A DNA stretch of 64,000 nt from contig WGNI01000011.1 in assembly GCA_016124655.1 (NCBI GenBank), positions 64,196-128,195 of the forward strand. Reading direction: 5' to 3'. The DNA is from Alphaproteobacteria bacterium (lineage in GTDB: Bacteria > Pseudomonadota > Alphaproteobacteria > Caulobacterales > Aquidulcibacteraceae). The notes under the pieces were generated by a model. The model was not told the origin of the DNA and made no database searches. It was given only the letters and a program-made list of their open reading frames with translations. How positions within the stretch are numbered: the stretch's first letter is position 1; each line of letters opens with the position of its first letter. This document shows positions 1,197 through 22,773 of this stretch, in pieces. The position numbers were made by a program, and so were the translations under genes.

Positions 1197-1209
1197 GAAT
1201 GGCTGTGCG

Positions 1210-2778: not shown

Positions 2779-4077
2779 TCAACTCACCGCATCGCGTGCG
2801 ATGGTTCGTGAGGCGAGGTAGAAGTGAAGGCTCGCTATGGCGAGTGCAAGCGTGGCCCCGAGGAGAGCGAAGCGCAGACTTAGCTCCTGGAACGTCGGCG
2901 CCAGCAAGTCGCTGACGAATCCCACGGTGAAAGGACCCGCGCCCATGCCTGCGAAGGCGGAAATGAACATCATTATGGCGATCGCCGTCGCGCGCAATCT
3001 TGTCTCGGCGACGGACTGCAGCGCTGCGAGCGCGACGCCTCCGCCGCTTGCAACGACGAAGCTGGCCGCGAACTTAAGGGCGAGCGCGACCCACGGGTCG
3101 GGCCAAAGGAAGACGGCGAGATAGATCGGGCAGCCGAGACCGTAGGCGAGCGCCGGCGCCCAGAGCTCCCAACGACGGTCATGCACGATAAGGCGCGCGG
3201 CAATGACGCCCCCAAGCAGAACGCCGACGATGCCGCCAAATCCCGACGAAAGACCGGACCACACGCCGATCTCTGTCAGCGTCAGCCCATGCACGCGCAT
3301 AAAGAACGCCGCGAGCCACTGCGCGATGGCGTAGGTGCCGAAGGCGCCGATCGTCAGGCCAAGAACGAGATGCACGAAGGTGGCCCGTCGCGACAGAACG
3401 CGTAGACCTTCTAGCATCGTCACAGCGGGTTCTTCTGAAGCACCAATCTGGCGATTTCCGAAGACGCGGGTCTCGCGCACGGTAAAAAGAACGATGAGTC
3501 CGAGCAGGAGGCCCGGTGCGCCGACGACGAAGAAGGCGATGCGCCAGCCGTACGCATCCGCGAGATAGCCGGTGGCCATCAGGCCGAGCGACAGTCCCGC
3601 CAGACCGCCAGCCTGGAACACGCTAATGGCGAAGGCGCGTCGCGGACCTGGAAAGTAATCGCCCAGCAAGGAATGCGACGCCGGCACGCAACCGGCCTCG
3701 CCTAGTCCGACTCCGACACGCGCCAGGAGGAGATGCGTGAAATTCGCCGCCGCTCCGCAGGCGGCGGTCATCGCGCTCCAAAGCACGATGCAGCCGGAAA
3801 GGATGCGCGTGCGCGAGCGTTTGTCCGCAAGGCGGGCGAGAGGAACGCCGAACGTTGCGTAGAGCGCCGCAAATGCAAAGCCCGACAGCAAGCCGATCTG
3901 GGTGTCGGAAAGACCGAGATCCGCCTTGATAGGCTCGACGAGAACCGCGAGCACCATGCGGTCCATGTAGTTGAAAAAGCTCACCATCGCGAGCACGCCG
4001 AGGACGTAATACTTGTACGGGCTAGCGGTCTTGGCAGGAGCCACAGCGCCCTCGCGCACCTGGTGCAACGTTGTCAA
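2779..4077 (-). CDS. MFS transporter
   Basis: 432 aa with about 12 predicted hydrophobic helices and the MFS motif GxLaDrxGrR (LARLADKRSRTR). It uses a TTG start. Confidence 0.7.
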   Translation of the reverse strand: MTTLHQVREGAVAPAKTASPYKYYVLGVLAMVSFFNYMDRMVLAVLVEPIKADLGLSDTQIGLLSGFAFAALYATFGVPLARLADKRSRTRILSGCIVLWSAMTAACGAAANFTHLLLARVGVGLGEAGCVPASHSLLGDYFPGPRRAFAISVFQAGGLAGLSLGLMATGYLADAYGWRIAFFVVGAPGLLLGLIVLFTVRETRVFGNRQIGASEEPAVTMLEGLRVLSRRATFVHLVLGLTIGAFGTYAIAQWLAAFFMRVHGLTLTEIGVWSGLSSGFGGIVGVLLGGVIAARLIVHDRRWELWAPALAYGLGCPIYLAVFLWPDPWVALALKFAASFVVASGGGVALAALQSVAETRLRATAIAIMMFISAFAGMGAGPFTVGFVSDLLAPTFQELSLRFALLGATLALAIASLHFYLASRTIARDAVS

Positions 4078-4138
4078 CCGCGCCTCCCGAACGTCTTGCG
4101 GGGGAGACTAACGGCAAAATCAGGCGCTGATCAATTGT

Positions 4139-4801
4139 TTAGTTTGCTTCTTGGGCCGAGGATTTCCTGGCACGGTCCTTTGGAGGCAATACGCCGCGAT
4201 AGATGAGTGAGAGATACGCACGGTGCCGGCGCTTCCAGAGGTCGGCTTCAAATCCCGACCGGCCGAGGATTTTGGTGACGTACGGATCGAGCAGTGACGT
4301 GCCGAGCTCCAGATAGACCATGAGAAAGGGAAGCCAGAGCCGGTCCACATCGGGGCGAAGGAGCCCCTGGGCGTCCATCCTGTCGATCGACGCGCGAGCG
4401 ATGCTGAAGAATTTCTCGAACACGCTTGCGCCCCATTCGCTTTCTTCCAGCAGCGCGCGACGAAAGTATTGCACCGTGACGGGCCAAGTTGATTGATGGC
4501 GCGCGATCCAATCATCTACCCACGCGAAGAAATCCTCCATCCGCATCTGCCCCATGGAGGGCGCCGCGGAGTCGAGCACTTCCTCGAACTGACGGATGAA
4601 TTTGGCGTCCACCGCCTCGCGAAGGCCTTCCTTCGATCCGAAATGGTGATTGATTAGGCCGACCGAGACGTCGGCTTTGGCCGCAATGTCGCGCACGGTC
4701 ACGCTGTCGAAGCCGTGTTCCGCGAAGAGCTGCATGGCTTCGTCGAGGATGCGCTCGCGTCCATTCGAGCGGTCGGGAATTGGCGTTGCGGCTTCGGTCA
4801 T
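4139..4801 (-). CDS. TetR/AcrR family transcriptional regulator
   Basis: It has an N-terminal HTH (RERILDEAMQLFAEHGFDSVTVRDIAAKADVS). The ATG at 4801 is preferred; the track ORF extends to a TTG at 4852. Confidence 0.75.
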   Translation of the reverse strand: MTEAATPIPDRSNGRERILDEAMQLFAEHGFDSVTVRDIAAKADVSVGLINHHFGSKEGLREAVDAKFIRQFEEVLDSAAPSMGQMRMEDFFAWVDDWIARHQSTWPVTVQYFRRALLEESEWGASVFEKFFSIARASIDRMDAQGLLRPDVDRLWLPFLMVYLELGTSLLDPYVTKILGRSGFEADLWKRRHRAYLSLIYRGVLPPKDRARKSSAQEAN

Positions 4802-4948
4802 CGCAGTCTCGTACTCAACGATCGTGATCAGACGCGCCCGCCGCGTCGTCAAGTGCGAGCGGAGCGGGGAACGAGCGTCAGGCTTGCACAGCAGGGGCGG
4901 ACGCGCTATCGCAGACTGAACAAACGTTCAAGTTTGGTGGAGGGATGC

Positions 4949-6151
4949 ATGCGAGAGGCGATGATCGTGTCTACGGCGCGTACCGGGATCGGCAAGGCCG
5001 TTCGGGGAAGCTTCAACGACACACACGGCATTGTTCTGGGCGGCCATGCCCTCAAGCACGCCATGGCGCGCGCCAAGGTCGAACCCGCCGAGATCGAGGA
5101 CGTGATCATCGGGGCCGGCATGCCGGAAGGCGCAACCGGCAATCTCGGACGGACATCTGCCATTTGGGCGGGATGCCCGAACACTGTTTCCGGATCCACC
5201 GTTGCGCGCTTCTGTTCTTCCGGCCTTCAGGCGATTGCCTTCGCGGCGGGGCGAGTGGTCAACGAGGGCGTGCCGGTGATGGCGGCCGGAGGGGTGGAGT
5301 CCATTTCGCTCGTGCAAATGAGCGGGCATATGAACCGCCATCGGGTGGTCGAGGAGCAGCTCTACGCACAGCAGCCGGCGCTCTGGATGAGCATGATCGA
5401 AACGGCCGAAGTGGTCGCGGAGCGCTACGGCGTCTCTCGGGAGACGCAAGACGCATACGCTCTGGAGAGTCAGCAGCGCACCGCAGCGGCGCAGGCGGCC
5501 GGCCTGTTCGACGACGAGATCGTGCCAATCACGGTCAAGTATCGTCAGATAGATAAAACCACCAAGGAAGAGACCTTGGTCGAGCACACCGTCAGGGGCG
5601 ATGAATGCAATCGCGCCCAGACAACGCTCGCGGACTTGCAGAAGCTTGAGCCCGTGCTGCGCGGAGGCCAGCGCATTCAGGAGGGCAGGTTCGTCACTGC
5701 CGGCAATTCGAGCCAGTTGTCGGATGGCGCAAGCGCATGCGTGCTGATGGAGAGAAAGGAAGTCGAACGTCGTGGATTGGCGCCGCTGGGAGTCTTTCGC
5801 GGGTTCGCCGTTGCAGGATGTGATCCGGACGAGATGGGCATTGGGCCTGTCTTCGCCGTGCCGCGCCTTCTGGAGCGACATGGCCTGAAGGTGGACGACA
5901 TCGGGCTGTGGGAGCTGAATGAGGCCTTCGCGTCGCAATGCATCTATAGCCGCGACAAGCTCGGCATCGATCCCGCGAAGTACAACGTGAACGGCGGCTC
6001 GATCTCCATTGGCCATCCCTACGGGATGACGGGTGCCCGATGCGTCGGCCATGCCCTCATCGAAGGCAAGCGGCGCAGGGCTAAATACGTGGTCGTGACC
6101 ATGTGTGTCGGCACCGGCATGGGCGCAGCGGGTCTTTTCGAAGTGGCTTGA
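4949..6151 (+). CDS. Acetyl-CoA C-acyltransferase (thiolase)
   Basis: Thiolase signatures are present (IVSTARTGIGKA..., NEAFASQ, GGSISIGHPYGMTGAR). The internal ATG at 4949 is preferred over the long upstream extension. Confidence 0.8.
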   Translation: MREAMIVSTARTGIGKAVRGSFNDTHGIVLGGHALKHAMARAKVEPAEIEDVIIGAGMPEGATGNLGRTSAIWAGCPNTVSGSTVARFCSSGLQAIAFAAGRVVNEGVPVMAAGGVESISLVQMSGHMNRHRVVEEQLYAQQPALWMSMIETAEVVAERYGVSRETQDAYALESQQRTAAAQAAGLFDDEIVPITVKYRQIDKTTKEETLVEHTVRGDECNRAQTTLADLQKLEPVLRGGQRIQEGRFVTAGNSSQLSDGASACVLMERKEVERRGLAPLGVFRGFAVAGCDPDEMGIGPVFAVPRLLERHGLKVDDIGLWELNEAFASQCIYSRDKLGIDPAKYNVNGGSISIGHPYGMTGARCVGHALIEGKRRRAKYVVVTMCVGTGMGAAGLFEVA

Positions 6152-6168
6152 GGGCGGGAGGAGGCGAC

Positions 6169-7044
6169 ATGCTTCGTCTGACAGAAGCGCAAAAGGCCTT
6201 CTACGAAAGGGAAGGGTATCTCCTCTTGCCCGGTTATTTGTCGCGCGAGTGGATCGTACGTCTCACCGAAGCGATGAAGCGATTCATCGCGGAGAGCCGT
6301 ACGCTTTCCAGCTCTTCGGCGTCGATACTTGTCGAGCCGGGCCATACTCTCGAGGCGCCGCGCCTTCGCCGCATTCCCCAGACAGTCGCCTTCGATCCGG
6401 ACTTCGAGGCGTTTGGATTGCGCGGCCCGGTCGTCGACATCGCCGAAGACGTGTTGGGCTCCGATGTCCGCTTCCATCACTCGAAGCTGAATTTCAAATG
6501 GTCAGGCGGGGGCGAAGAAATACGCTGGCATCAGGACATCCAGTTCTGGCCGCATTCGAATTACTCGCCGCTGACGATTGGCGTCTATCTGACCGATGTT
6601 GATGACGAGATGGGGCCGATGGGCGTGGTGCGCGGAAGTCATCGCGGTCCGCTCTACAGTCTCCGGGACGAAGCCGGCGCGTGGACAGGCGCGCTATCCG
6701 ACGATGAAGTGCGTGCGATCGACCCGTCGTCTGTCGCTTGGCTGAAGGGGCCGATAGGTTCAGTCACGATCCATAATTGCCGCGCCGTTCACGGCTCCAT
6801 GGCGAACCGGTCGCCGCGGACGCGGCCGCTCTTGCTGCACACATACGCTGCCGCAGACGCGATTCCGCTGACACGGATCATGGACGGCGTGGCGCACGCC
6901 AATGCGATGGTCCGCGGATCGCCCGCTACGCATGCGCGGTTCGGCGATGTTCCGTGCCCAATGCCGCCGGCATGGGAAAAGGGTCAGTACAGTTCGATCT
7001 TCGCATCGCAAAAGCGTGAGACCGCCGGTGCGATGGACTCTTGA
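6169..7044 (+). CDS. Phytanoyl-CoA dioxygenase (PhyH) family Fe(II)/2OG oxygenase
   Basis: PhyH-like motifs are present (WHQD, HxD...H). The ATG at 6169 is preferred. Confidence 0.65.
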   Translation: MLRLTEAQKAFYEREGYLLLPGYLSREWIVRLTEAMKRFIAESRTLSSSSASILVEPGHTLEAPRLRRIPQTVAFDPDFEAFGLRGPVVDIAEDVLGSDVRFHHSKLNFKWSGGGEEIRWHQDIQFWPHSNYSPLTIGVYLTDVDDEMGPMGVVRGSHRGPLYSLRDEAGAWTGALSDDEVRAIDPSSVAWLKGPIGSVTIHNCRAVHGSMANRSPRTRPLLLHTYAAADAIPLTRIMDGVAHANAMVRGSPATHARFGDVPCPMPPAWEKGQYSSIFASQKRETAGAMDS

Positions 7045-7051
7045 GGCGCCG

Positions 7052-7804
7052 CTAGTTCCGGTAGCTCGGATCGATCCGGTCTAGCTTTCTGAGCAGTGTG
7101 GGCCAGGTGAACTGGCCTGCCCGACCGTCGAACAGCGATACGCTCTGTTCGTGCACCTTCTCGGGGACTCCCTGGTTCGGGATCGAGAGATTGTCGCCGC
7201 CCGCCTGCGCCCGGATCTGCATCGTGCAGGCGCGTTCAAGAAAATACATGACGAGCCATGCGCCCGCACAACTCGGCCCGACGGCGAGCGTGCCGTGATT
7301 GCGAAGCAGCATGCAGTGCTTGTCGCCGAGGTCGGCGACGAGGCGCTCGCGCTCATCGAGATCAAGCGCAACGCCTTCGTAGTCGTGATACGCGAGGGCG
7401 CCGCGCACCATCATGGCGTGCTGCGTGATCGGCAACAGCCCCTCCGCCCGCGCCGATACGGCCGCCCCGTCATCGGTATGCAGATGCATGACGCACTGCG
7501 CGTCGTCGCGCGCCATGTGCACTGCGCTATGGATGACAAATCCTGCCGGATTTACGATCGCATTCGGATCGTCTACCGGCCGCCCTTCGAGATCGACTTT
7601 AACGAGACTCGAGGCTGTAATCTCTTCGAACATCAAACCGTAAGGGTTTAGCAGGAAGTGATGGTCGGGGCCTGGAACGCGCGCCGAGATGTGCGTGAAG
7701 ATCATGTCGTCCCAGCCTTCCAGCGCCACCAAGCGGTAGAGAGCGGCAAGATCGACCCGCACCCGGCGTTCGGCTTCGTCGAGCTCTGAGTGTCGTGCGT
7801 GCAA
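7052..7804 (-). CDS. Class II aldolase/adducin family protein
   Basis: It shows the aldolase_II N-terminal domain pattern (HLHTDDGAAVS..., RNHGTLAVG). Confidence 0.65.
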   Translation of the reverse strand: MHARHSELDEAERRVRVDLAALYRLVALEGWDDMIFTHISARVPGPDHHFLLNPYGLMFEEITASSLVKVDLEGRPVDDPNAIVNPAGFVIHSAVHMARDDAQCVMHLHTDDGAAVSARAEGLLPITQHAMMVRGALAYHDYEGVALDLDERERLVADLGDKHCMLLRNHGTLAVGPSCAGAWLVMYFLERACTMQIRAQAGGDNLSIPNQGVPEKVHEQSVSLFDGRAGQFTWPTLLRKLDRIDPSYRN

Positions 7805-7819
7805 GGCTAAGTCTCCTTC

Positions 7820-9409
7820 TCAGGCGGCAGCGGTTGTGCGTGCGATGCGCGCCTTGAGCGCCTTGCGATCGATCTTGCCGTTCGGAAGGGCGGGCAGCTC
7901 GGTCTCGAATGAGAACGTCTTGGGGATCTTGTAGTTCGCGATCCGGTCTCGCAGGAATGCTTTCAGATCTTCCGTTGACACCTTTGCGGCTGCATGTGCG
8001 CGAATGTAGGCGTGGCCGACTTCTTGGAACATCGGGTGCAGCTGCGGCACGACGACAGCGATCTCGATGTCGGGGTGCGTAGACAGAACCTGTTCGACTT
8101 CTGCGGGGTAGACATTGTAACCGCCCGACTTGAACATTTCCTTCAGGCGTCCGACGAAAACGAAGTTGCCGTCCTCGCGTTCAACACCGAGATCGCCGGT
8201 GTGCAGAAATCCGTCGTGCGTGAAAGCCTCCGCCGTCTGCTCCGGCATGCGGAAATAGCCTGACATATTGTACGGGCCGCTGATCTGGATTTCACCAACC
8301 TGCCCGCGTGGGCACTCCGTTCCGTCCGGTGTCGCAATGCGCGTGACCGCGCCGGGAAGGGGCTTGCCTATGGTGTCCGCCATCACTTCGAGGCTCGCCC
8401 CGATATCCGTTCGCGTGACGATGCCGCACGTTTCGGTCTGCCCATATACGGACGAAAGGACTGCGCCGCCCGGAGCGATCTTTTCGAGCATGGCTTTGGG
8501 CGTCGCTGCGCCGCCGAACACGATCAGGCGTGTCGAGCGCAGCCGTTCCGCCACTGAAGCAGTTGCCTGGAACATCATCATGAAGCCGGTGGGACTTGCG
8601 ACGAGATAGCTGGGCTGTTCGCGTTTGGAGAGTTCAGCCAGCGCCTCCATGTCGACCCGCGGATGAAAGATCAGGAGACCGCCGTAAGCGAGCACATTCA
8701 TGCAGATGTTGTTGAGCGCGCCAACATGATTCATCGGCGCCGCGCAGATCGCCGATTCCAGCCCATCGCCCATCCAGGCGCGATTCGCTTGGGCTGCGCT
8801 GACGATCGCGCGGTGCGAGAGCATTGCCCCCTTGGGATTGCCCGTCGTTCCGGAGGTGTAGACGATCACGGCGATGTCTTCGGGCTCGACGACTGCACGC
8901 GCGCGGTCGAAACGATCGGCGTCTATCGCGCGGCCTGCTTCAATGAAGGCGTCCCAGGCGGCCCCGCGCTTGCGGACCGCGTCGCCCGCCTCCGGCAGGA
9001 TCGGGATGACCACATCCCGGTCAGCGCCTGCGGCGACGAGCTCAGCGACGTAGTCCCGGTCTTCGAACGGCGAGACGGCGAAGATGAGCGCCGGGTCCGC
9101 ATTGTCGACGATGTAGGCGTACTCGGTGCGTTGGTAACGCGGATTGAGGCCGTGCCAGATCGCGCCGATCGAGGTCGTCGCGAGGTAAACCGCCCAGAAA
9201 TCCGTCGAGGGCGGTCCGAGGAGGCCGACACGGTCGCCGCGCTTCACGCCGCGCGCAATCAGGCCCCGAGCGATGGCGTCAACGAGATCCGCGAGGTCGC
9301 GGTAGCTCAAACGTTCAACGCCTCCGACAGCGGCTTCCGCATCGGGGGCTGCGTCCCGTCGGGCGAAAAGGAAGTCGATGATTAGGCGCTCACTTCCGAA
9401 AACCGTCAT
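7820..9409 (-). CDS. AMP-dependent acyl-CoA synthetase/ligase
   Basis: AMP-binding motifs are present (YTSGTTGNPKGAM, GYGQTE, GDLG...DGNFVFVGRLKE). ATG start at 9409. Confidence 0.8.
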   Translation of the reverse strand: MTVFGSERLIIDFLFARRDAAPDAEAAVGGVERLSYRDLADLVDAIARGLIARGVKRGDRVGLLGPPSTDFWAVYLATTSIGAIWHGLNPRYQRTEYAYIVDNADPALIFAVSPFEDRDYVAELVAAGADRDVVIPILPEAGDAVRKRGAAWDAFIEAGRAIDADRFDRARAVVEPEDIAVIVYTSGTTGNPKGAMLSHRAIVSAAQANRAWMGDGLESAICAAPMNHVGALNNICMNVLAYGGLLIFHPRVDMEALAELSKREQPSYLVASPTGFMMMFQATASVAERLRSTRLIVFGGAATPKAMLEKIAPGGAVLSSVYGQTETCGIVTRTDIGASLEVMADTIGKPLPGAVTRIATPDGTECPRGQVGEIQISGPYNMSGYFRMPEQTAEAFTHDGFLHTGDLGVEREDGNFVFVGRLKEMFKSGGYNVYPAEVEQVLSTHPDIEIAVVVPQLHPMFQEVGHAYIRAHAAAKVSTEDLKAFLRDRIANYKIPKTFSFETELPALPNGKIDRKALKARIARTTAAA

Positions 9410-9659
9410 ATTTCAATGGCCTTTTCGCTGCAAGCGGCGCCGGTGTTGCCGTTGGGTCACGCGCCAGACGCCGCTGATTTAACGGCACAATAGCGGGTTG
9501 CAACAAGCTGAGCAATTGTTTAGCACGGTGGTGGTGCTGTTCCGGAGACCCCGGAATGAGCGTGTTCGCAGGTCGTCATGAGTTCGGGGCAGCCGTGTGC
9601 CCCGGCGAAAAAAGAGGCGCGGCGATCCACGCCGGCGCGAAAGACGGGGAGAAGGCGCG

Positions 9660-11744
9660 ATGAACAACCGATTTTCCATGCTGACCGGCGCTTGCCTTGC
9701 GTCGTTGTTAGCATTGCCCGGGGCGGCTTTTGCGCAGTCCGAATCGGAAGAGATCGTGGTGACGGCGCAGAAGCGGGAACAAGCGATCCAAGACGTGCCA
9801 TTGGCGGTCCAGGCAATCGGCGCTGATGCGCTTGAGACGGCAGGCGTTCGCCAAGTCGGTGATCTCGTGCGGTTCATTCCCGGCGCATCGATCGTCAACA
9901 ACACGACCGCTGGGCGTGAGACGATTTCGATTCGGGGCATTGCCGCAGGGACGACCGGTGATGGACTGGTCGGCTTCTACATTGATGAAACGCCCTTCAG
10001 CATTCCCAACCTGCAGCTCTCTCCGCCAGGAAGCTTGATCGACGTACAGCGTGTCGAAGTCGTCCGGGGGCCTTCCGGAACGCTTTACGGCAGCGGAGCG
10101 ATGGGCGGGAACATCAAGATCGTGACACGTACCCCGGACACGACAGAGTTCTCGGGCCTCTTGCGTGGAGAATACTCCAACACATCGGACGGCGACGACA
10201 ACCACAATATAAATGGCGTGTTGAATGTTCCGATTTTGCGCGACCGCCTGGCGGTGCGCCTGAATGCAGGCATCGAAACCCTGGGAGGGTATGCAGAGGC
10301 TCCGGAGTTCAATCGAAGCGACGTCAATGGCATGGACGCAAATAGCTATCGTGGCGTTTTGCTGTGGACTCCGACCGATACGATTGACGTTTCGCTCACC
10401 GCATGGACGATGAACAATCGCCAGGACTTCAACAATAATCTCACCGCAGCCCAGACGATCGCCGCGGGCAGTCCCATCATTACAGGGACGGGCGGAAGAC
10501 CATCATACCAGAACACCGATATGGATCTCTATTCCGCAACGGCGAATTGGGACCTTGGGTTTGCAACGCTGACAGGAAACGTCTCCAACATCATCCATAG
10601 CTTGAAGCTGAACGACGCCACGTCGTTCGTCGTCAACAACTTCAGCGACTTCCGTACCGTGCAGACCACGGGAGAAGTGCGCTTGACGTCGAGCGGAGAC
10701 GGGCCATTTCAATGGATTGTTGGGGCCTTCAAGCGGGACGCCATAATCAAGTCCTATCTGGATGTGCGCATCGTCCCGTCGACGCCCTTGATCTTCAGCT
10801 ATGGAACAATCGAGACGGACTCCTACGCGGTGTTCGGCGAAGTCTCGTATGACTTCTTTGGCGGCATGCTCACGCCGACCTTGGGCGTCCGCTACAGCGA
10901 AGACGACCGAGGTGGATTCTCAGTCAACTTCGTGGATAGTACGCGCGCCCTGCGCGGCGCGGTTTGGGAGAGCACGAACCCGCGCTTCAATCTGCGGTTC
11001 CGCCCAACTGAAGACGCCATGTTCTACATCAATGTCGCCAAGGGCTTCCGGTCTGGATCGTTTCAGTCCCAGGGACAGGTCGACGCAGCCGCTTTGCTTG
11101 GGATTCCGACTCAGACCGGCGTCGATCCCGACAGCGTTTGGACTTATGAGATTGGAACGAAATTGTCGGTCTCGAGCGATTTTCAAGTCGAAGCGAGCGT
11201 GTATCACTCTGACTTTGAAGACATCATCGTCCAGTTCGTGTCACCGGCGATTGTATCCTTGGCGAACGGCGGTGACGCGGCGATCGACGGTGTCGATCTG
11301 GCGTTTGTTTGGCGAACGCCGGTGGACGGACTGGATGTGAACTTTAACGGCAGTCTGTTGAACACCAACTTTGAAAATGTCGTTCCCGCGCTGTCTGTCG
11401 CATTGCCGACGATTTCCGAGGGTAGGCCGCTGCCAAACGTTCCCACCAGCAACTACACGATCGGCGCGGACTACGTGCGTCCATCAAGTATGTGGCCCGG
11501 CGTCGATTGGCGGCTTCATGGGTCGTACTCGTTCCGGGGGTCTCAGATTGATGCTGCGTCCGGTCGTGTTTCCGGTGAGTTGAACGATCTGACGCTCCGC
11601 GCAGGTCTCGAGGGCACAAATTGGCGCGCGAATGTCTTTGCGTTGAACGCGCTTGATGACGACGATCCGGCAGTGCGCACGGCCACGGGCATTCAAATCC
11701 TGTACCCACGCCGAATTGGCGTACAACTCGGCTTCGACTTCTAG
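9660..11744 (+). CDS. TonB-dependent outer-membrane receptor
   Basis: It has a signal peptide, a TonB box (EEIVVTAQKRE), a plug domain, and a C-terminal beta-barrel ending in an aromatic residue (...LGFDF). The ATG at 9660 is preferred; the track begins at an upstream GTG. Confidence 0.8.
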   Translation: MNNRFSMLTGACLASLLALPGAAFAQSESEEIVVTAQKREQAIQDVPLAVQAIGADALETAGVRQVGDLVRFIPGASIVNNTTAGRETISIRGIAAGTTGDGLVGFYIDETPFSIPNLQLSPPGSLIDVQRVEVVRGPSGTLYGSGAMGGNIKIVTRTPDTTEFSGLLRGEYSNTSDGDDNHNINGVLNVPILRDRLAVRLNAGIETLGGYAEAPEFNRSDVNGMDANSYRGVLLWTPTDTIDVSLTAWTMNNRQDFNNNLTAAQTIAAGSPIITGTGGRPSYQNTDMDLYSATANWDLGFATLTGNVSNIIHSLKLNDATSFVVNNFSDFRTVQTTGEVRLTSSGDGPFQWIVGAFKRDAIIKSYLDVRIVPSTPLIFSYGTIETDSYAVFGEVSYDFFGGMLTPTLGVRYSEDDRGGFSVNFVDSTRALRGAVWESTNPRFNLRFRPTEDAMFYINVAKGFRSGSFQSQGQVDAAALLGIPTQTGVDPDSVWTYEIGTKLSVSSDFQVEASVYHSDFEDIIVQFVSPAIVSLANGGDAAIDGVDLAFVWRTPVDGLDVNFNGSLLNTNFENVVPALSVALPTISEGRPLPNVPTSNYTIGADYVRPSSMWPGVDWRLHGSYSFRGSQIDAASGRVSGELNDLTLRAGLEGTNWRANVFALNALDDDDPAVRTATGIQILYPRRIGVQLGFDF

Positions 11745-11773
11745 GGCTGCCTTACCTCCCGAAGGACAAACTG

Positions 11774-11801
11774 ACGGGGACCCCGCGTCCCCGTTTTTTT
11801 T
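11774..11801 (+). terminator. Rho-independent terminator downstream of the TonB-dependent receptor gene
   Basis: GC hairpin acggggaccccgcgtccccgt followed by a run of eight T residues. Confidence 0.7.
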
Positions 11802-11827
11802 GCATGCAGAGCAGATAGGAGAGTACG

Positions 11828-12748
11828 GTGACCATTCGCTTTGATCAACGAGTTGCGGTCGTGACCGGCGCCGGGGCGGGCCTCGGGCGTGAGCACGCCC
11901 TTGGGCTGGCTCAGCGGGGGGCAAGGGTTGTCGTAAACGACTTCGGCGGAGGGGTTGACGGTGCCGGCGGGTCAGCCGGCCCGGCTACTGAGACGGTCCG
12001 TCTCATCTTGGAAGCGGGCGGTGAAGCCTTTGCGCACGCTGCTGACGTCACCAAGCCCGATCAGGTCCAGGATATGGTTACGCAGACCATGAAGAGATGG
12101 GGTAGGGTGGATATTCTGGTCAACAATGCCGGCATTCTTCGCGACCGCACGTTTGCGAAGATGACATCAGAAGATTTCGCCGCGGTGGTCGCGGTTCATT
12201 TGCAAGGATCGGCGAATTGCAGCCTCGCGGTTTGGCCGCACATGAAGGAAGCCAATTACGGCCGGATCGTCATGACGAGCTCATCATCTGGCATCTACGG
12301 AAATTTCGGTCAGGCGAACTATGGCGCAGCCAAGATGGGCGTGGTCGGGCTCATGAACGTGCTGCACATTGAGGGCGCCAAGAACAATATTCGAGTCAAC
12401 ACGATCGCGCCTGGCGCAGCGACACGGATGACCCAGGATCTCCTGCCGCCTGGCGTGATCGAGCTCATGAGCCCGAAGACGGTGACGCCCGGTCTGCTCT
12501 TCCTTGTCAGCGAGGATGCGCCATTGCGCGTGATACTCTGCGCAACGGCGGGCGGCTTCGCCCGCACGATGATCTATGAGACCGAGGGCGTCTGGCTGGG
12601 CGAGGAAGACTGCACGCCGGAGAATGTTGCGGCGCTTTTCCCGCAGATTTCCGACCCGAATGGTCAGCACGTCTATGAAAGCGGCTCGCCTCAGGTGGCC
12701 AAGTTCGTCGGCAAGGCTGCAGCTGGAAAGGGCGTAAAGCTCGGCTGA
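11828..12748 (+). CDS. SDR family oxidoreductase, MFE-2/17beta-HSD4-like 3-hydroxyacyl-CoA dehydrogenase type
   Basis: It has the TGAGAGLG Rossmann motif and a YGAAK catalytic motif, and its N-terminus is typical of MFE-2-type dehydrogenases. GTG start with an aggagag RBS. Confidence 0.7.
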   Translation: MTIRFDQRVAVVTGAGAGLGREHALGLAQRGARVVVNDFGGGVDGAGGSAGPATETVRLILEAGGEAFAHAADVTKPDQVQDMVTQTMKRWGRVDILVNNAGILRDRTFAKMTSEDFAAVVAVHLQGSANCSLAVWPHMKEANYGRIVMTSSSSGIYGNFGQANYGAAKMGVVGLMNVLHIEGAKNNIRVNTIAPGAATRMTQDLLPPGVIELMSPKTVTPGLLFLVSEDAPLRVILCATAGGFARTMIYETEGVWLGEEDCTPENVAALFPQISDPNGQHVYESGSPQVAKFVGKAAAGKGVKLG

Positions 12749-12755
12749 TAACTGC

Positions 12756-13562
12756 TCAGTCGCCGGTGAATGTCGGCGTCCGCTTTTCGAAGAATGCGGT
12801 CACTGCTTCCTTGAAATCGCCGCTCATGCTAGCGAGCAGCCATTGGTCGCCATCCATGTGCATGATCGCGCGGTCAAGCGGCCCGGCTACCGAATTGATG
12901 CTGCGCTTGATCATCTGAACGGAGAGCGGCGGCAGCGCGGCATACTCTTCTGCCCAGGCGAGCGCTGTTGCGTGCAACTGCTCTGGGGGCACGACAGCGT
13001 CCAGAAAGCCCCATCGTTCCAGAATATCCGCCGTGAAAAGGCGGCCCGTCATGATCATCTGCTTGGCGCGTGAGGGGCCGATGAGATGGACGCAGATGGG
13101 GACGGCGTTCCACATCAGGTTGATCCCCAGCCTCACCTCTCCGTATCCGATGCGCGCGTTTGTCGCCCCGATGCGGAAGTCGCACGCGCTGGTGATGCAC
13201 GCGCCGGCGCCCGTGGCGATTCCCTGTACTGCGCAGATAGTCGGCTGGTGGATATCCTGGATGCAGCGCATCAATGTGGCGCCCAGTTCGATTGTACGCC
13301 GTCGCATGAGGAGGGTTGGCGTCTCGCCGCCCTGGAACCGGGGCTGTTTCAGGTCCGCGCCAATGGAAAAATCATTTCCTTGAGCGCAGAAGATCACGGC
13401 GCGGGTCTGCTCGCACGTCGCGAACGACCTGCAGGCCGCGTCGAGTTCTGCCATCATTTCGGTGTTCACCGCATTGCGTTCAGCGGCGCGTGTCAGCGTC
13501 ACGCGTGCGATGGCGCCATCCTTGTCGACGCGGACATGGGTGGAGTCGGACTCTGTCGTCAT
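12756..13562 (-). CDS. Enoyl-CoA hydratase/isomerase (crotonase) family protein
   Basis: It shows a crotonase fold pattern (VTLTRAAERNAVN..., CAVQGIATGAG). The internal ATG at 13562 is preferred. Confidence 0.7.
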   Translation of the reverse strand: MTTESDSTHVRVDKDGAIARVTLTRAAERNAVNTEMMAELDAACRSFATCEQTRAVIFCAQGNDFSIGADLKQPRFQGGETPTLLMRRRTIELGATLMRCIQDIHQPTICAVQGIATGAGACITSACDFRIGATNARIGYGEVRLGINLMWNAVPICVHLIGPSRAKQMIMTGRLFTADILERWGFLDAVVPPEQLHATALAWAEEYAALPPLSVQMIKRSINSVAGPLDRAIMHMDGDQWLLASMSGDFKEAVTAFFEKRTPTFTGD

Positions 13563-13679
13563 GTGGTATTCCCTTGGTCTCGGAAGCTTCGAGAGGCGAC
13601 GCAAGACAATCGCACTAAACGCTTGATCAGTCGAGGGCGTGACAATATCGTCCCTCCGTCAAGGCGAGAATGAGCGCTG

Positions 13680-14651
13680 ATGATGAAGCGTCCCTTCACC
13701 GTTGCGGAACAGTCGCAGCACTTTCTAACGAGGCGCCACGATGCGGTTCCTCAAGGACGCGTCGAAGGCCGCGCCGCATGGATGGCGCGTGATCTGCCCC
13801 GTGGACCAGCGCTCAAGCAGCCGATGTCTGACGCGCTTGTCGAGGCGTGGGAGCGACGCCTCGGAGCGGCGGGTGAATCCGCGCGCGAAGACGCCTACGA
13901 GCCGGTGATCGCTGAAGCGGTGGAGACGTGGCGGCGGGAGCTTCTCGACGGAAGAGGATTCGTTCTTCTCCGCGGCGCCCCGGTGCGCGCATGGTCGCTG
14001 AATCGCGCCAAGGCGTTCATGCAGATGCTCGGCGCCTGTTTCGGTCGCCTCGGAATGCAGAGTAGCCGGACCGACCACCTGATCGCCGAAGTGCGCAACA
14101 CGGGCGCGGCTCTACGCGACCCCTTTTCACGAAACTACATCACGGATCGCGAGTTCCGGTTCCACTGCGACGCCGCGGATCTTCTCGGCCTTCTCTGCGT
14201 CCGCAAGGCGCGCGACGGTGGTCTGAACAAGCTTGCGAGCTCCGTCACCGTCTATAACGAACTTCAACGCCGTCGTCCCGATCTTGCGAAGCGACTGTTC
14301 GCTCCGGTGTATCTCGATCTCCGAAACGAACAAGTGCCCGGGTCTGCGGCATTCGCGGAGGTGGTGCCTTGCGCATATGCCGAAGGTGCTTTGCGCACAT
14401 TCTACATTTCTGACTATTTCCGCAGCGTAGATCGCCACGGCGAGATTAAACTGCCTGCGGATTATTTCGAGCTTTTCGATCTGTACGAAGAGATCGCTGA
14501 TCACGAGGACATTTCCGTGAGGGTCGATCTCGATCCGGGCGACATCCTCCTCATCAACAATCACGTGATGCTGCATGCCCGCACCGCGTTTGAGGATGAG
14601 CCGGGGGCTGAGCGGCTCCTGCTTCGTTTTCTGGTTTCCGTCGGCGCATGA
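13680..14651 (+). CDS. TauD/TfdA family Fe(II)/2-oxoglutarate dioxygenase
   Basis: It has an HxD motif (FHCDAAD) and a distal His (NHVMLHARTAF). Confidence 0.6.
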   Translation: MMKRPFTVAEQSQHFLTRRHDAVPQGRVEGRAAWMARDLPRGPALKQPMSDALVEAWERRLGAAGESAREDAYEPVIAEAVETWRRELLDGRGFVLLRGAPVRAWSLNRAKAFMQMLGACFGRLGMQSSRTDHLIAEVRNTGAALRDPFSRNYITDREFRFHCDAADLLGLLCVRKARDGGLNKLASSVTVYNELQRRRPDLAKRLFAPVYLDLRNEQVPGSAAFAEVVPCAYAEGALRTFYISDYFRSVDRHGEIKLPADYFELFDLYEEIADHEDISVRVDLDPGDILLINNHVMLHARTAFEDEPGAERLLLRFLVSVGA

Positions 14652-16279
14652 GCACGGCGCACGCCAATCGTCCCGTCTGGGGTTTGCGGGTTGGAGAAAA
14701 GAGCATGGGCGCTTACGCGCTCCGTGTCTTCGAACCCCGACCGCAACGGCTCGCCGACATTCTGGATGAGTCGGCTAAGTGGGGCAAAAGGGAATTTCTG
14801 GTCCACGGTGCGCGGCGCGCCTCTTTCGCGGAGTTTCACGCGGCTGTCGCACGGGCGGCCGATAGACTGGCGGAGGCAGGCGTGCGCCGCGGGGACAGAG
14901 TGATGGTACTTGGCGCAAACAGCGCCGAGTGGCTTGTGGGGTTTTGGGCATTGGCGCGGATCGGCGCCGTCATTGCGCTTGGCAATGCGTGGTGGAGCGC
15001 GGAAGAGACGGCTCACGCTTTGGCCCTCGTCGAGCCTCGCCTCGTTCTCGTCGATGAAGCGCGCTGCGTGATCGTGCCTTCCGATCATCCGTCCCTCGCG
15101 ATCGAAACCCTACGCAAAGACTGGACCGAAAATGACGGCGCTGCGCCGACCACGAAGGTGACGCAAGTGCAGGACGCAGAAACCGATGAGGAGCATCCTG
15201 CGCTGTTCATCTTTACGTCCGGAACGACGAGCCGTGCGAAATCCGCAGTGCTGTCCCATCGTGCGGCGCTAGCATGCCTGCATGTGCTGTACGCAGGGCG
15301 CGGCGTTTCACCCTCGGCGTTCGGTCCCGAGGATGCGCAAACGACCATGCTGTCCTGTGCGCCCCTGTTCCATCTTTCCGGATACATGTCGCACACGCAG
15401 GCTTTGCTGAGCGGGCATCGCTTCATCTTGCTTGAAGGGCGCGCGGATCCCGAACGGATACTCGATCTCATCGAGAAGGAATGCGTCCAAACGTGGGCGA
15501 GCGTCCCGACGCTCTTGTCGCGAGTCGTGCACACGCCGTCCGCGCTATTGCGAGATCTTTCGTCGGTCACCGGCATCGCGGGCGGCGGCGCCACGGTGTC
15601 TTCGGAGCTGATGGATCGCGTGCGCCGCGTTTTTCCGAATGCGAGAATCGGGGCCAGCGCGACATACGGCCTGACGGAGGCAGGCGGATCGGTCACGCTC
15701 ATCAGCGGGGAAGAGTATTTGCGACGACCGCTGTCTTGCGGTCGCGCCTTGCCCGCGTGCGAAATTCGGATCGAAGCGCCTGATGCAGAAGGCAGGGGAG
15801 AAATTCTCGTGCGAACTCCGTCGCAGATGAGCGGCTACTGGGGTGAGACGGAGGGGCGCGCGATCGATCGCGAGGGCTGGGTACACACCGGCGATCTGGG
15901 GCGGCTCGATGAAGAAGGGTACCTGTTCATCACTGGTCGGGCGAAGGACATCGTGATCCGTGGCGGGGAGAATGTATCTGCGCCTCGCGTCGAACATTGC
16001 ATATTGCGCCACCCCGCCGTTCTCGAGGTCGCCGTCGTCGGTCTGCCGCATCCCGATCTCGGGGAGGAAGTCGCGGCCGCTGTGGTCGCCAAGAAGGGGG
16101 CTGCGCTCGATATCGAGGCGCTTGCGGCGTTTGCGTCCGAAAGCCTTGCGTATTTCGAACGTCCGACCCGCTGGTGGATCAGGGATGAGCCATTGCCGAC
16201 CAACGCAACGTCAAAGATCGTCAAGGCGCAACTTATCGCCGAGTGGCCAGACGGAAATGCGCCTGAGCGAGATGTTTAG
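14648..16279 (+). CDS. AMP-dependent acyl-CoA synthetase/ligase
   Basis: AMP-binding motifs are present (FTSGTTSRAK, YGLTE, GDLGRLDEEGYLFITGRAKD). Its ATG overlaps the TauD stop codon (ATGA). Confidence 0.8.
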   Translation: MSTAHANRPVWGLRVGEKSMGAYALRVFEPRPQRLADILDESAKWGKREFLVHGARRASFAEFHAAVARAADRLAEAGVRRGDRVMVLGANSAEWLVGFWALARIGAVIALGNAWWSAEETAHALALVEPRLVLVDEARCVIVPSDHPSLAIETLRKDWTENDGAAPTTKVTQVQDAETDEEHPALFIFTSGTTSRAKSAVLSHRAALACLHVLYAGRGVSPSAFGPEDAQTTMLSCAPLFHLSGYMSHTQALLSGHRFILLEGRADPERILDLIEKECVQTWASVPTLLSRVVHTPSALLRDLSSVTGIAGGGATVSSELMDRVRRVFPNARIGASATYGLTEAGGSVTLISGEEYLRRPLSCGRALPACEIRIEAPDAEGRGEILVRTPSQMSGYWGETEGRAIDREGWVHTGDLGRLDEEGYLFITGRAKDIVIRGGENVSAPRVEHCILRHPAVLEVAVVGLPHPDLGEEVAAAVVAKKGAALDIEALAAFASESLAYFERPTRWWIRDEPLPTNATSKIVKAQLIAEWPDGNAPERDV

Positions 16280-16369
16280 CGGTCCGCGGCCCATGACGCG
16301 CTTGCGCGGCCCACGCAGATCGCTTCGCAGCATCAAGTCCGGATGAAAGTGCGGACAACGGCAAGTGCG

Positions 16370-17971
16370 CTAGTTCAGCTCATGCTCGAAAATGGCGCGC
16401 GCGCGCGCATAGTCGGCTTTGCCGTTGGGCGCACGTGGCGCTTCTTGCGTGAACACGATCCGTTTCGGCGCCTTGTAACCTGCGAGACTCGTCTTCACGT
16501 GCGCAATCAAGGTCTGTTCCCCGACCGGCGCCGAGACGCTCGCCACGGCTGCTACGGATTGCCCGAGGCGCGGATCGGGAACAGCGAACACAAGCGCGTC
16601 GGTCACCAGTGCGTGGCTCTTGAGCGCCTGCTCGACCTCTTCCGGATAGACCTTTTCGCCGCCGGTATTGATGCAATGACTGCCGCGACCCAGCAGGACG
16701 ATCGTCCCGTCTGCATCGACCGTGGCGTGATCGCCGCCGATCATCCGGCGCACGCCATCGATCGTGACATAGGTGCGCGCGGTCCGTTCCGGATCTTTGT
16801 AATAGCCGAGCGGTAGGTCGCCGCCCTTTGCGATGAGGCCGACTTCTCCCGAACCGGGCGTGACAGGTCGAAAGTCATCGGGTCGCACGACGATGGCGTC
16901 GGCCGGTATGAATTGGGCCGTCGATGGTCGCACGTCCCTGGACGTCACAGACGCGGCGATGCTGGCCGCTTCTGTCGCTCCCAGTCCGTCAATCAGCAGC
17001 GCGTCGGGCATGAAGTCGAGCATGCCTTCCTTGACCTCCGCACTCCACATCATTCCGCTCGAGACGACGCTTGTGACCGCGCGCACATCCCATCTGCCCG
17101 GCTCCTTGCGGAGCGCATCAAGCAGCGGACGCGCAAAGGCGTCTCCCACGATAATGATGCCGGTGCAGGCGTGCCTCTCGATCGCGTCGAGCGCGGATGC
17201 GGGATTGAAAGCCGGCGACGCCGAACAGACGACAGCGCCTCCACGGGACAAGACGCTGACAGCAGCAAAGAGCCCGGTGCCGTGCATCAGCGGCGGACCG
17301 ATGTGGTAGCGGACCTGCGGTGCGCCGCGTGTGCGTTCCGACCGGATCTGCTCCTGAAGCGCCTCGACGGTCATCGGCGGCGGTTGATCGGGCGCCGCCG
17401 CGCGCGACGCCGCGAGCACGTTCCATAGCACGCCGGACGTCCACATGACGCCTTTGGGCAGTCCCGTCGTACCTCCGGTGTAGAGCAGAAACAGGTCATC
17501 CGCCGAGCGACGCAGGTCCAGCGGGGCGCCATCGGAGCGGTAGATGCTCTCGAGGGCGATGGCTTCAGGCGCCGAGCCCCGGGCGACGATTCTGACGGCG
17601 AGCGCGCTCGCTTCGTCGCGGGTCGGAATCTTGGACGCGAATTCCGCATCGAAAATGATCGCCTCTGCGTCCGAATTCTCGACAAGATAGGCGATTTCCT
17701 CACGCCCATAGCGATAATTGATATTTACCGGCGCCAGCCGCGCCTTGAAGCAGGCTGCGAAGGCGATGAGGTAGTCCGGGCCGTTGCGCATATAGAGCGC
17801 GACCTTGGCCTGATCGCTCAGACCTGCGTGGCGCAACGCACGTGCGAGTGCGTTGGATCGATGCTCGAACTCAGCCCAGCTGACGGTTTGGTCGTCGCAA
17901 ATGACGGCAGGTTGATCAGGCGCACACGCTGTTGCGACCGCGCTGAAGACGTCTCCGAAGCTGACAGTCAT
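16370..17971 (-). CDS. AMP-dependent acyl-CoA synthetase/ligase
   Basis: AMP-binding motifs are present (YTGGTTGLPKGV, GDLPLGYYKD). The ATG at 17971 is preferred because an operator-like motif lies at 18009-18024, about 40 bp upstream. The track ORF extends to 18055. Confidence 0.75.
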   Translation of the reverse strand: MTVSFGDVFSAVATACAPDQPAVICDDQTVSWAEFEHRSNALARALRHAGLSDQAKVALYMRNGPDYLIAFAACFKARLAPVNINYRYGREEIAYLVENSDAEAIIFDAEFASKIPTRDEASALAVRIVARGSAPEAIALESIYRSDGAPLDLRRSADDLFLLYTGGTTGLPKGVMWTSGVLWNVLAASRAAAPDQPPPMTVEALQEQIRSERTRGAPQVRYHIGPPLMHGTGLFAAVSVLSRGGAVVCSASPAFNPASALDAIERHACTGIIIVGDAFARPLLDALRKEPGRWDVRAVTSVVSSGMMWSAEVKEGMLDFMPDALLIDGLGATEAASIAASVTSRDVRPSTAQFIPADAIVVRPDDFRPVTPGSGEVGLIAKGGDLPLGYYKDPERTARTYVTIDGVRRMIGGDHATVDADGTIVLLGRGSHCINTGGEKVYPEEVEQALKSHALVTDALVFAVPDPRLGQSVAAVASVSAPVGEQTLIAHVKTSLAGYKAPKRIVFTQEAPRAPNGKADYARARAIFEHELN

Positions 17972-18395
17972 GACCCAAACCGCATCTACGCCGCGCAGTG
18001 ACCAGACACTAAACAAATGCGCAGTTTGTGGCAATGATATGAGCGCATATGCCATGGCCTGAGACCTGAAAACGCCTCCAAGAATGAGTAGAGACCGTGA
18101 GACGATAGCTGGATTTCAACCGCGGCTGGTGGAGAAACCGGGGTCGCGTCAAAATCCTTCAAATCTCTGGCGTTCCGCCTCACATCGGCGCCGCAGACTG
18201 GTCCTGAAACTCACTTTGCGGAGCGACTGAGCTATTGCCGGAAATCGGGGTGTCGAACCCCGGAGCTGGCCGTGCCCTTCAAGCCTCTGGCGGGGTTTCG
18301 AGACGGCAAAAGCCTAGTGGCGGAGAGTGAAGGACAAGGTCCAAACTCGGAGCCACGCGCGCAGGGTTGGTGTGGCGGCTGCTCGCAGGCGAGGA

Positions 18396-18409
18396 TGGCG
18401 GAGAGGGAG
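18396..18409. repeat. attL-like direct repeat (TGGCGGAGAGGGAG) identical to the last 14 nt of the tRNA-Ser gene at 25691-25704
   Basis: This is an exact 14-bp match to the tRNA 3' end. A second degenerate copy (tggcggagagtgaagga) lies at 18318-18334. It marks the left boundary of the lower-GC island. Confidence 0.6.
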
Positions 18410-18541
18410 TCCGACGACAGCCCTTATTTTTCAAGGGTTGCGAGGTGATGACGACTGCGTACCCACGTCGCAACCCACGTTAACTGCGCCTTCCCGTCGC
18501 CGTTTGCCAGCGCGCGCCGATGACTCGCAACTAAATGGTAA

Positions 18542-18982: not shown

Positions 18983-19030
18983 ACCCTCAAGATCGTCCCG
19001 CTTGCCAGGCAGGCATGTAATGGTCGTCGG

Positions 19031-20390: not shown

Positions 20391-20618
20391 GGCGAAGGCG
20401 ATCAGCGGTTAGAGCGAGACAGAATTTTTCACGGACACGGAGCGTGCGGCGCGCACGCCCAGCGGTGCAGGCGCATGGAGGCAGGAGCAAGCGACCAAAC
20501 ACTGGCGGGCGCGGCGTCTTATAACCTTTCGGGGAGGTGTATTACGGCCGGTCTGAAATGTGCTGCGGGCGCGCGCTTCCAGCGCCGCAAGCACATAGGG
20601 GGTATGGGGGTTGAGACT

Positions 20619-20712: not shown

Positions 20713-20734
20713 CTTATAACCTGGGCAAACAGCA

Positions 20735-22738: not shown

Positions 22739-22773
22739 CCAGAAGCCCGCCGCGCCAACGGTGGGTTGTTGTT

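Follow-up and report, generated by a model that had tools for sequence, protein, structure and literature searches.

A palindromic motif at five intergenic sites of an alphaproteobacterial catabolic cluster, the probable operator of a TetR-family regulator

The described regulators closest to the one studied here are TetR-family proteins of lipid breakdown, namely PsrA of Pseudomonas and its Xanthomonadales relatives, the actinobacterial KstR and KstR2, and the TetR-type FadR and FadP. The PsrA operator has been footprinted as C/GAAAC-N2-4-GTTTG/C (PMC13104628; PMC10304680), and FadP was defined through comparative genomics (PMC5343134). A survey of proteobacterial regulons placed a PsrA regulog in the Caulobacterales and none in the Sphingomonadales, and its list of PsrA targets holds no genes for TonB-dependent receptors (TBDR), MFS transporters, PhyH or TauD (PMC5343134). 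Here we analyzed a 64,000-nucleotide stretch, referred to below as the window, from an uncultured alphaproteobacterium of the Aquidulcibacteraceae (assembly GCA_016124655.1, contig WGNI01000011.1, positions 64,196 to 128,195), in which a catabolic cluster contains a TetR-family gene and five copies of a palindromic motif. We consider it likely, with a probability of about 0.82, that the gene at 4139-4801 encodes a TetR-family repressor for which these five palindromes of 16-18 bp serve as operators.

Five palindromes and their counterparts at orthologous promoters

Reading of the sequence combined with a position weight matrix (PWM) scan identified five motif copies in the 64-kb window, all of them intergenic. 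They are given below with their PWM scores, as predicted operator sites.

Site 1: 4127-4142, CTGATCAATTGTTTAG, 27.3 bits, about 57 bp 5' of the MFS start at 4077
Site 2: 4916-4931, CTGAACAAACGTTCAA, 19.2 bits, divergent TetR-thiolase region
Site 3: 9508-9523, CTGAGCAATTGTTTAG, 25.6 bits, divergent region between acyl-CoA synthetase 1 (ACS1) and the TBDR
Site 4: 13615-13630, reverse orientation, CTAAACGCTTGATCAG, 22.1 bits, divergent region between enoyl-CoA hydratase (ECH) and TauD
Site 5: 18009-18024, reverse orientation, CTAAACAAATGCGCAG, 23.4 bits, centre 45 bp 5' of the ATG of acyl-CoA synthetase 3 (ACS3) at 17971

Four of these copies had been reported in an initial annotation of the same DNA, and sequence reading bore them out at the same positions. 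The fifth, at 4916, had been listed there as degenerate; the site is indeed present, at 4916-4931, but it is not marginal, because the orthologous position carries a strong site in 26 of 27 loci. The copies are near-identical and palindromic as first described, but their length is better given as 16-18 bp, and the axis of symmetry falls between the two central bases (CTGATCAA|TTGTTTAG). In the window the palindrome is imperfect and 16 bp long, with its centre between AA and TT (AA|TT). One arm reads CTAAAC, and the second arm is weaker (CTGATC, CTGAGC or CTGCGC).

The five sites occupy five non-convergent intergenic regions. Since all five such gaps carry a site, every transcription unit from MaoC (1894) to ACS3 (17971) is fronted by one. 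Site 1 overlaps the TAA stop codon of the TetR gene (4139-4141) and is predicted to act as an internal operator for MFS-MaoC. The centre of site 2 lies 25 bp 5' of the thiolase ATG and 122 bp 5' of the TetR ATG, a position from which it is predicted to serve both TetR autoregulation and control of the thiolase-PhyH operon.

We compared the occurrence of the motif with chance in the window. A pattern derived from the window only, CTGNNCANTTGTTTAG, gave four matches with up to 2 mismatches against 0.41 expected, a number that was reached in 0 of 100 shuffles, and the same search gave no match in the 18.1-64 kb portion. The PWM, which was iterated, symmetrised and trained on orthologous TetR loci, recovered the five sites only, with no other position in the 64 kb above 8 bits. 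Past the left edge of the window, 2.4 kb more of sequence (ADH, cupin) contained no further site, so that the sequence scanned for this genome comes to 64 kb plus 2.4 kb. An Rfam scan of the window detected tRNAs only and no RNA element at the operator sites.

We then examined the motif in other genomes. The TetR protein is 100% identical to a protein of an "Alphaproteobacteria bacterium" metagenome-assembled genome and has hundreds of homologues at 55-90% identity. An alignment of 26 homologues led to 43 distinct loci on contigs taken from one genome per species. These loci span the Alpha-, Gamma- and Betaproteobacteria and include Hyphomonadaceae, Caulobacter, Phenylobacterium, Brevundimonas, many Sphingomonadales (among them the cultured Erythrobacter oryzae and Sphingomonas arenae), Cellvibrionales/Pseudomonadales and one Rubrivivax. 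A simple mismatch scan found the motif in almost all of the 43 loci, and motif matches were present in 40. With at most 1 mismatch, the window-only pattern gave 66 matches in 33 of the 43 loci against 0.4 expected; exact matches numbered 10, with 0 expected. The PWM found 127 sites of at least 20 bits in the 725 kb of these loci, where first-order Markov resampling predicted 0.05, and only one of these 127 strong sites fell inside a mapped gene. The consensus refined by the PWM from the orthologous loci is RCT(G/A)AACA-WW-TGTT(C/T)AGY, with the half-site CTAAAC/CTGAAC.

The motif also emerged when words of seven nucleotides were counted in the 121 non-convergent intergenic gaps of these loci and compared with gene interiors. 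The top words were CTAAACA (p~1e-111), ACTAAAC, CTGAACA and ACATTTG, and the only unrelated word among the most enriched was the ribosome-binding site. Enrichment over a random background, which the initial annotation had named as a check, was thus found both in the window shuffles and in the 43 independent loci, and the intergenic motif discovery it had also proposed was answered by this unbiased enrichment, which recovers pieces of the motif. The motif is accordingly a palindrome within the 15-20 bp range that is over-represented in intergenic DNA 5' of functionally linked genes.

To follow individual promoters, the window proteins were mapped onto the loci by tblastn, and a site was counted if it scored at least 20 bits and lay at most 320 bp upstream of the orthologue.

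TBDR: upstream site in 30/30 orthologues
Thiolase: upstream site in 26/27 orthologues
ACS1: upstream site in 35/38 orthologues
TetR: upstream site in 28/41 orthologues, the others lying inside operons behind an operator
MFS: upstream site in 6/10 orthologues
MaoC: upstream site in 5/12 orthologues
ECH: upstream site in 8/27 orthologues

Based on these counts, the regulon has a core of TetR, thiolase, ACS1 and TBDR, around which genes for beta-oxidation, transport and dioxygenases form a variable shell. The sites track genes rather than positions through the rearrangements seen among Hyphomonadaceae, Caulobacterales, Sphingomonadales, Cellvibrionales/Pseudomonadales and the one Rubrivivax, and they are kept at the orthologous promoters of other TetR-carrying genomes. 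The motif is non-random and intergenic, and it is retained at orthologous promoters wherever an orthologue of the TetR occurs.

Several arrangements of the window recur, and others vary. The operator at the TetR stop codon is also kept in the Hyphomonadaceae locus L001 and in Sphingomonadales loci. A divergent ECH/TauD or ECH/PhyH pair with a site between the genes was found in L001, L002, L006, L010, L019, L025, L028 and L041, which represent the closest relatives and Phenylobacterium. Three Caulobacter loci, L003-L005, have the orthologue of ACS3 behind the TBDR gene, downstream of the TBDR operator. TBDR promoters of Sphingomonadales carry two operators with a centre-to-centre distance of 33-34 bp, about three helical turns (L009 7600-7649; L015 13082-13130; equivalent positions in L018, L021, L023, L024 and L032-L034), whereas the window has single sites only. 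This fixed spacing suggests cooperative binding of two TetR dimers.

Some site-linked genes are absent from the window: a PF10118 metal-dependent hydrolase, a single-domain MaoC, an acyl-CoA dehydrogenase and another SDR. The PF10118 "predicted metal-dependent hydrolase" gene has a strong operator in 9 loci (e.g., L001 16496-17344, L015 19213-20037) and is a frequent member of the regulon; no copy turned up in what sequence of the window's genome was available.

The TetR protein, promoter geometry and alternative readings

According to the initial annotation the cluster has no regulator besides the TetR at 4139-4801, and Pfam together with independent gene calls agrees. PF00440 is matched at residues 18-64 (E=1.9e-19; 69.6 bits against a cutoff of 24). 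The AlphaFold2 model has a mean confidence score (pLDDT) of 81 and 10 helices in an all-helical TetR fold, and the 202 Protein Data Bank chains that it matched at E<=1e-3 were all TetR regulators. The protein therefore has the make-up of the family, an N-terminal helix-turn-helix (HTH) domain and an all-alpha fold with a C-terminal ligand-binding/dimerisation domain.

Several observations tie this protein to the motif. In nearly every locus the motif stands next to the TetR gene, on its upstream side as well as at the stop codon. The HTH region (…VSVGLINHHFGSK…) is near-invariant among orthologues that are 45-70% identical overall. The recognition helix is VSVGLINHHFGSKEGL, and the DNA-binding domain aligns to that of PsrA (2FBQ, residues 12-78, E=3e-11), whose recognition helix is VNLAAVNYHFGSKKAL. 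In the six orthologues with an N51K exchange in the recognition helix, the half-site CTATAC made up 10/20 half-sites compared with 21/258 elsewhere (Fisher p=6e-6, not phylogeny-corrected), and G stood at position 7 in 7/20 compared with 13/258. This covariation of helix and half-site is suggestive of a tie between the TetR and the motif. Autoregulation, which is typical of TetR repressors, is implied by the sites upstream of tetR, in the window at 4916-4931 and likewise in 28 of 41 orthologue loci.

The single TetR regulon proposed in the initial annotation, with the motif as its operator, is therefore supported by the enrichment tests, the seven-nucleotide words, the tracking of promoters, the conservation of the recognition helix and the likeness to PsrA. 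From this evidence we infer that this TetR, rather than another factor, binds the motif and represses.

Promoter-like boxes were identified next to three of the sites.

Putative ACS1 promoter: 9487-9515, minus strand, -35 TTGCTC (9515-9510) inside the operator, 17-nt spacer, -10 TATTGT (9492-9487)
Putative thiolase promoter: 4884-4912, plus strand, TTGCAC (4884-4889), 17 nt, TATCGC (4907-4912), operator beginning 3 nt downstream
Putative TauD promoter: 13623-13651, plus strand, -35 TTGATC (13623-13628) inside the operator, 17 nt, -10 TATCGT (13646-13651)

The ACS1 layout recurs across the Sphingomonadales loci as TTGCTC or TTGATC inside the operator, 17-18 nt and a TATGNT-like box. In thiolase orthologues a TTGCRC box stands ahead of the operator, which itself overlaps the -10 box; in the window the operator begins 3 nt past the thiolase -10 and would thus cover the transcription start. 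The position of operators over conserved -35- and -10-like boxes indicates repression by promoter occlusion, as read from the sequence.

In the mechanism we propose, a TetR homodimer would sit on each palindrome with one HTH per half-site. Bound over the -35 box (ACS1, TauD) or over the -10 box and start (thiolase), the repressor would exclude RNA polymerase and shut off the genes for uptake across the outer membrane (TBDR), transport across the inner membrane (MFS), the three acyl-CoA synthetases, an R-specific, MFE-2-like beta-oxidation set (MaoC hydratase, SDR dehydrogenase, thiolase and crotonase), PhyH, TauD, the class II aldolase-family protein and tetR itself. A lipid-like substrate or its CoA thioester would then bind the divergent C-terminal domain and release the repressor. 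We infer this relief by a lipid-like compound or CoA ester by analogy with PsrA, TetR-type FadR and KstR2, and the branched-chain or isoprenoid acids suggested in the initial annotation are plausible candidate inducers.

A number of points weigh against this reading. All loci were gathered through the TetR, so that absence of the motif where the TetR is absent cannot be shown. Two loci, L014 and L036, have no site, and in both the TetR lies at a contig end. Part of the PWM statistics is circular, since the training loci are also the tested loci, a problem that the window-only pattern test avoids. The promoter hexamers were read by eye and from orthologue alignments, not from mapped transcription starts, and a generic sigma-70 scan gave no promoter call at the operator sites; the E. 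coli consensus is too strict for this GC-rich alphaproteobacterium. The fold search, with its generic TetR matches, found no close structural relative of the C-terminal domain, which thus gives no clue to the effector. PsrA, finally, also activates (rpoS, exsCEBA), so that repression at every site is not guaranteed (PMC13104628).

The alternative that survives best, though we consider it unlikely, is that the operator is real but bound by a regulator encoded elsewhere, such as a global fatty-acid regulator of the PsrA or FadR type, and that the local TetR has another target. The motif core AAAC-N4-GTTT is the PsrA core, RegPrecise has a PsrA regulog in the Caulobacterales, and sampling around the TetR creates part of the linkage by construction. 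However, the motif adjoins the TetR gene, upstream and at the stop codon, in nearly all loci of three classes, and its half-site covaries with N51K in the helix. Its outer positions CT...AG also differ from the C/G flanks of PsrA sites, and published PsrA targets include no TBDR, MFS, PhyH or TauD genes. The Caulobacterales "PsrA" regulog appears to belong to a different TetR from the one described here, although we cannot be certain of this.

Marginally less probable again is that the TetR binds the motif yet acts as an activator or dual regulator at some promoters. This would parallel PsrA, which represses its own gene and fadBA5 but is an activator of rpoS and exsCEBA (PMC13104628), and it could fit the range of about 25 to about 120 bp between operators and start codons. 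The operators at ACS1, TauD and thiolase nevertheless lie over -35- or -10-like boxes or the predicted start, in a geometry that is conserved. Most TetR regulators of catabolic clusters are, moreover, repressors.

The last alternative takes the motif for no regulatory site at all (an alternative-sigma promoter element, a REP- or MITE-like repeat or a chance AT-rich palindrome) and could point to the AT-rich islands that the sites form in GC-rich intergenic DNA, some with TTGNNC hexamers, but it is effectively refuted by the PWM counts, pattern counts and seven-nucleotide words: dyad symmetry and a size of 16-18 bp suit a dimeric HTH protein, placement relative to the promoter boxes varies (over -35 at ACS1, over -10/+1 at thiolase) and so is not that of a fixed promoter element, conservation is confined to 18 bp without the flanks and extends across three proteobacterial classes, and chance is excluded by the window shuffles, the PWM counts and the window-only pattern counts.

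The catabolic cluster and its surroundings

Repression by the local TetR would govern the following genes, apart from the first two. The map is based on Pfam, NCBIfam and gene calls on a second, independent assembly of the same DNA.

297-1196, plus strand: alpha/beta hydrolase
1168-1875, plus strand: DJ-1/PfpI
1894-2763, minus strand: two-domain MaoC/hydratase-2-like protein (Pfam), predicted target operon of site 1
2779-4077, minus strand: MFS transporter (Pfam), predicted target operon of site 1
4139-4801, minus strand: TetR-family regulator, 220 aa (PF00440; identical gene call on the independent contig)
4949-6151, plus strand: thiolase (Pfam, NCBIfam), predicted target operon of site 2
6169-7044, plus strand: PhyH-family dioxygenase (Pfam, NCBIfam), predicted target operon of site 2
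7052-7804, minus strand: class II aldolase-family protein (Pfam, NCBIfam), with ACS1 in the predicted target operon of site 3
7820-9409, minus strand: acyl-CoA synthetase ACS1 (Pfam, NCBIfam), predicted target of site 3
9597-11744, plus strand: TBDR (Pfam), predicted target of site 3
11828-12748, plus strand: SDR, MFE-2-type (3R)-hydroxyacyl-CoA dehydrogenase-like (Pfam), predicted target of site 3
12756-13604, minus strand: enoyl-CoA hydratase/isomerase ECH (Pfam), predicted target of site 4
13680-14651, plus strand: TauD-family dioxygenase (Pfam), predicted target operon of site 4
14648-16279, plus strand: acyl-CoA synthetase ACS2 (Pfam), predicted target operon of site 4
16370-17971, minus strand: acyl-CoA synthetase ACS3 (Pfam), predicted target of site 5

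The most likely start of PhyH is the ATG at 6169, which has a ribosome-binding site and agrees with a 291-aa gene call, and that of ECH is likely the ATG at 13562. No operator directly 5' of the SDR gene was found by the PWM scan of the window. A strong terminator-like hairpin with a T-run (11773-11795) lies between the TBDR stop at 11744 and the SDR start at 11828; it may partly uncouple SDR from TBDR and allow regulation by partial read-through.

We found that two proteins of the cluster resemble parts of the peroxisomal multifunctional enzyme MFE-2. The SDR is very closely homologous to the (3R)-hydroxyacyl-CoA dehydrogenase domains of fungal and animal MFE-2 (2ET6, E=3e-121; human HSD17B4, E=1e-71), and the MaoC protein matches its hydratase-2 domain (1S9C). 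Judged by these matches, the two make up a bacterial, split version of the D-bifunctional protein, which stands beside a PhyH-family dioxygenase. The cluster thus encodes an R-specific beta-oxidation set together with two dioxygenases of the Fe/2-oxoglutarate type. Among solved structures the TauD-family protein is most like FrbJ (5EQN) and a "predicted hydroxylase" (7N7V); taurine and alkylsulfate dioxygenases are not close to it. Among the acyl-CoA synthetases, ACS3 scored above the cutoff of NCBIfam PRK07798 (562 against 543 bits) and ACS2 below that of the CasG steroid-24-oyl-CoA synthetase model (428 against 750 bits).

What the pathway degrades can be proposed only tentatively. In a reading that we regard as possible rather than probable, this is an undescribed regulon, wide in aquatic and soil Alpha-, Gamma- and some Betaproteobacteria, in which TBDR and MFS import a bulky lipid acid that is activated with CoA and broken down by a "peroxisome-like" route, while a PsrA-like TetR senses the substrate or its CoA ester. 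The candidate substrates are phytol-derived phytanic or pristanic acid, other methyl-branched or hydroxylated fatty acids and a sterol or hopanoid side-chain acid. The route would use the R-specific MFE-2-type hydratase and dehydrogenase, thiolase, hydroxylation of the PhyH/TauD type and the aldolase-family enzyme. If this reading is true, this would be the first case in which TonB-dependent uptake is assigned to fatty-acid-like substrates and paired with a dedicated regulator.

The analysis turns an anonymous 16-kb cluster of an uncultured alphaproteobacterium into a defined regulon, predicted to comprise five operators, 14 genes and one repressor, and this regulon is found again in Caulobacterales, Sphingomonadales, Hyphomonadaceae, Cellvibrionales/Pseudomonadales and one Rubrivivax. 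The refined motif is a handle for a genome-wide search for the remaining members. In carriers that have been cultured, for example Erythrobacter oryzae COR-2 and Sphingomonas arenae SYSU D00720, it can also help to identify the inducer and substrate by experiment, and it is usable for building a ligand-responsive TetR/operator pair. The main interest lies in what this TonB-dependent, MFE-2-type pathway of lipid catabolism, common in environmental Proteobacteria, takes as its substrate.

A 7.3-kb integrative element (18396-25704) adjoins the catabolic cluster, which lies just outside it. An exact 14-bp direct repeat, TGGCGGAGAGGGAG, marks both ends of the element, at 18396-18409 and at 25691-25704, the latter being the 3' end of tRNA-Ser(CGA) (25691-25780). 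The tyrosine integrase of the element (24258-25502, minus strand; Arm-DNA-bind_3, Phage_int_M, Phage_integrase) stands beside this tRNA gene, and the element also encodes a DUF3854/AAA_25 protein resembling a primase-helicase (20735-22738). Just downstream of its gene, short direct repeats at 20622-20714 (units like TTTTTCCCCGGTTTTGG; 3-5 copies, 11-23 bp spacing) are iteron-like and could be a replication origin or a protein-binding array. A degenerate copy of the tRNA-Ser 3'-end repeat, matching 12/14 positions, was found at 18318-18331, 78 bp left of the attachment (att) repeat, and may be the scar of an earlier tandem integration. Inside the integrase ORF, ARAGORN called a 94-nt "tRNA-Ile(TAT)" at 25373-25466, which Rfam at its gathering threshold does not confirm and which is probably a false positive.

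The GC content at third codon positions is about 0.70-0.76 on the left of the window (1-24000, cluster and island) and about 0.78-0.90 on the right (29000-64000). We considered whether the cluster, with its lower value, is part of the neighbouring mobile element and rejected this, as the att repeats bound 18396-25704 only and the cluster is syntenic in L001 and L002. Given the same synteny, the cluster is not obviously a recent acquisition.

Beyond the element lies an MmeI-like type IIL restriction-modification gene (25847-29358, minus strand), split into two overlapping ORFs. The ORF at 26839-29358 holds the MmeI_N, helicase-spacer and MTase domains and the ORF at 25847-26866 the target-recognition domain; the split could be programmed, could stem from a frameshift that made the gene a pseudogene, or could be an error of the assembly. 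Two tRNA genes with almost no spacer occupy 30985-31133; both are confirmed by Rfam, and the first (30985-31058) has no anticodon assignment by ARAGORN.

Comparison with described regulators

A targeted literature search found no description of this regulon or its motif. Some homologues of the TetR carry the JGI label CecR, but the protein scored 28 bits against the NF008587 cutoff of 365, so far below it that the name is uninformative. It was likewise rejected as KstR (NCBIfam NF033703, 34.4 bits against a cutoff of 280) and as a PsrA orthologue (NCBIfam NF053516, 55.5 bits against a cutoff of 300, with the N-terminal 80 residues only).

KstR and KstR2, which control steroid catabolism in Actinobacteria, share with this system a local TetR, many divergent promoters, a CoA-dependent lipid cluster and one palindrome with AAC/GTT cores, and KstR2 has a CoA thioester as its effector. 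For KstR the motif is TnnAACnnGTTnnA, in which the central spacer is 2 bp compared with 4 here, and the present cluster has no steroid ring-degrading genes. The TetR-type FadR of Bacillus subtilis (YsiA) and Thermus thermophilus and the FadP of Betaproteobacteria are also comparable, as acyl-CoA-responsive repressors (predicted for FadP) of beta-oxidation with palindromic operators. Thermus FadR (3ANP/3ANG) was among the fold matches, with a generic likeness (TM-score of about 0.5, 22% identity). The operator sequences of FadR and FadP differ from the motif, however, and their regulons contain neither TBDR nor dioxygenases.

PsrA (PA3006 in Pseudomonas aeruginosa/putida; Smlt2053 and XAC2014 in Xanthomonadales relatives) resembles this TetR as a TetR-family, autoregulated regulator of beta-oxidation genes with a palindromic operator. 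Its recognition helix, VNLAAVNYHFGSKKAL, is also much like the one here, VSVGLINHHFGSKEGL. This likeness ends after the DNA-binding domain. The operators agree in part: the strong half-sites here contain the AAAC-N4-GTTT core of PsrA, but the flank is T rather than C/G, extra conserved CT/AG positions are present, many half-sites have GAAC, and one half-site often reads CTGAAC. In contrast to PsrA, the present regulon includes TBDR, MFS, PhyH/TauD dioxygenases and MFE-2-type enzymes, and none of fadBA, fadE, etf or rpoS was found in the cluster or among the site-linked genes of the 43 loci. Our verdict is that the regulon is real, conserved and previously undescribed, but belongs to a well-known kind, in which a TetR repressor acts on a palindromic operator, and is mechanistically ordinary.

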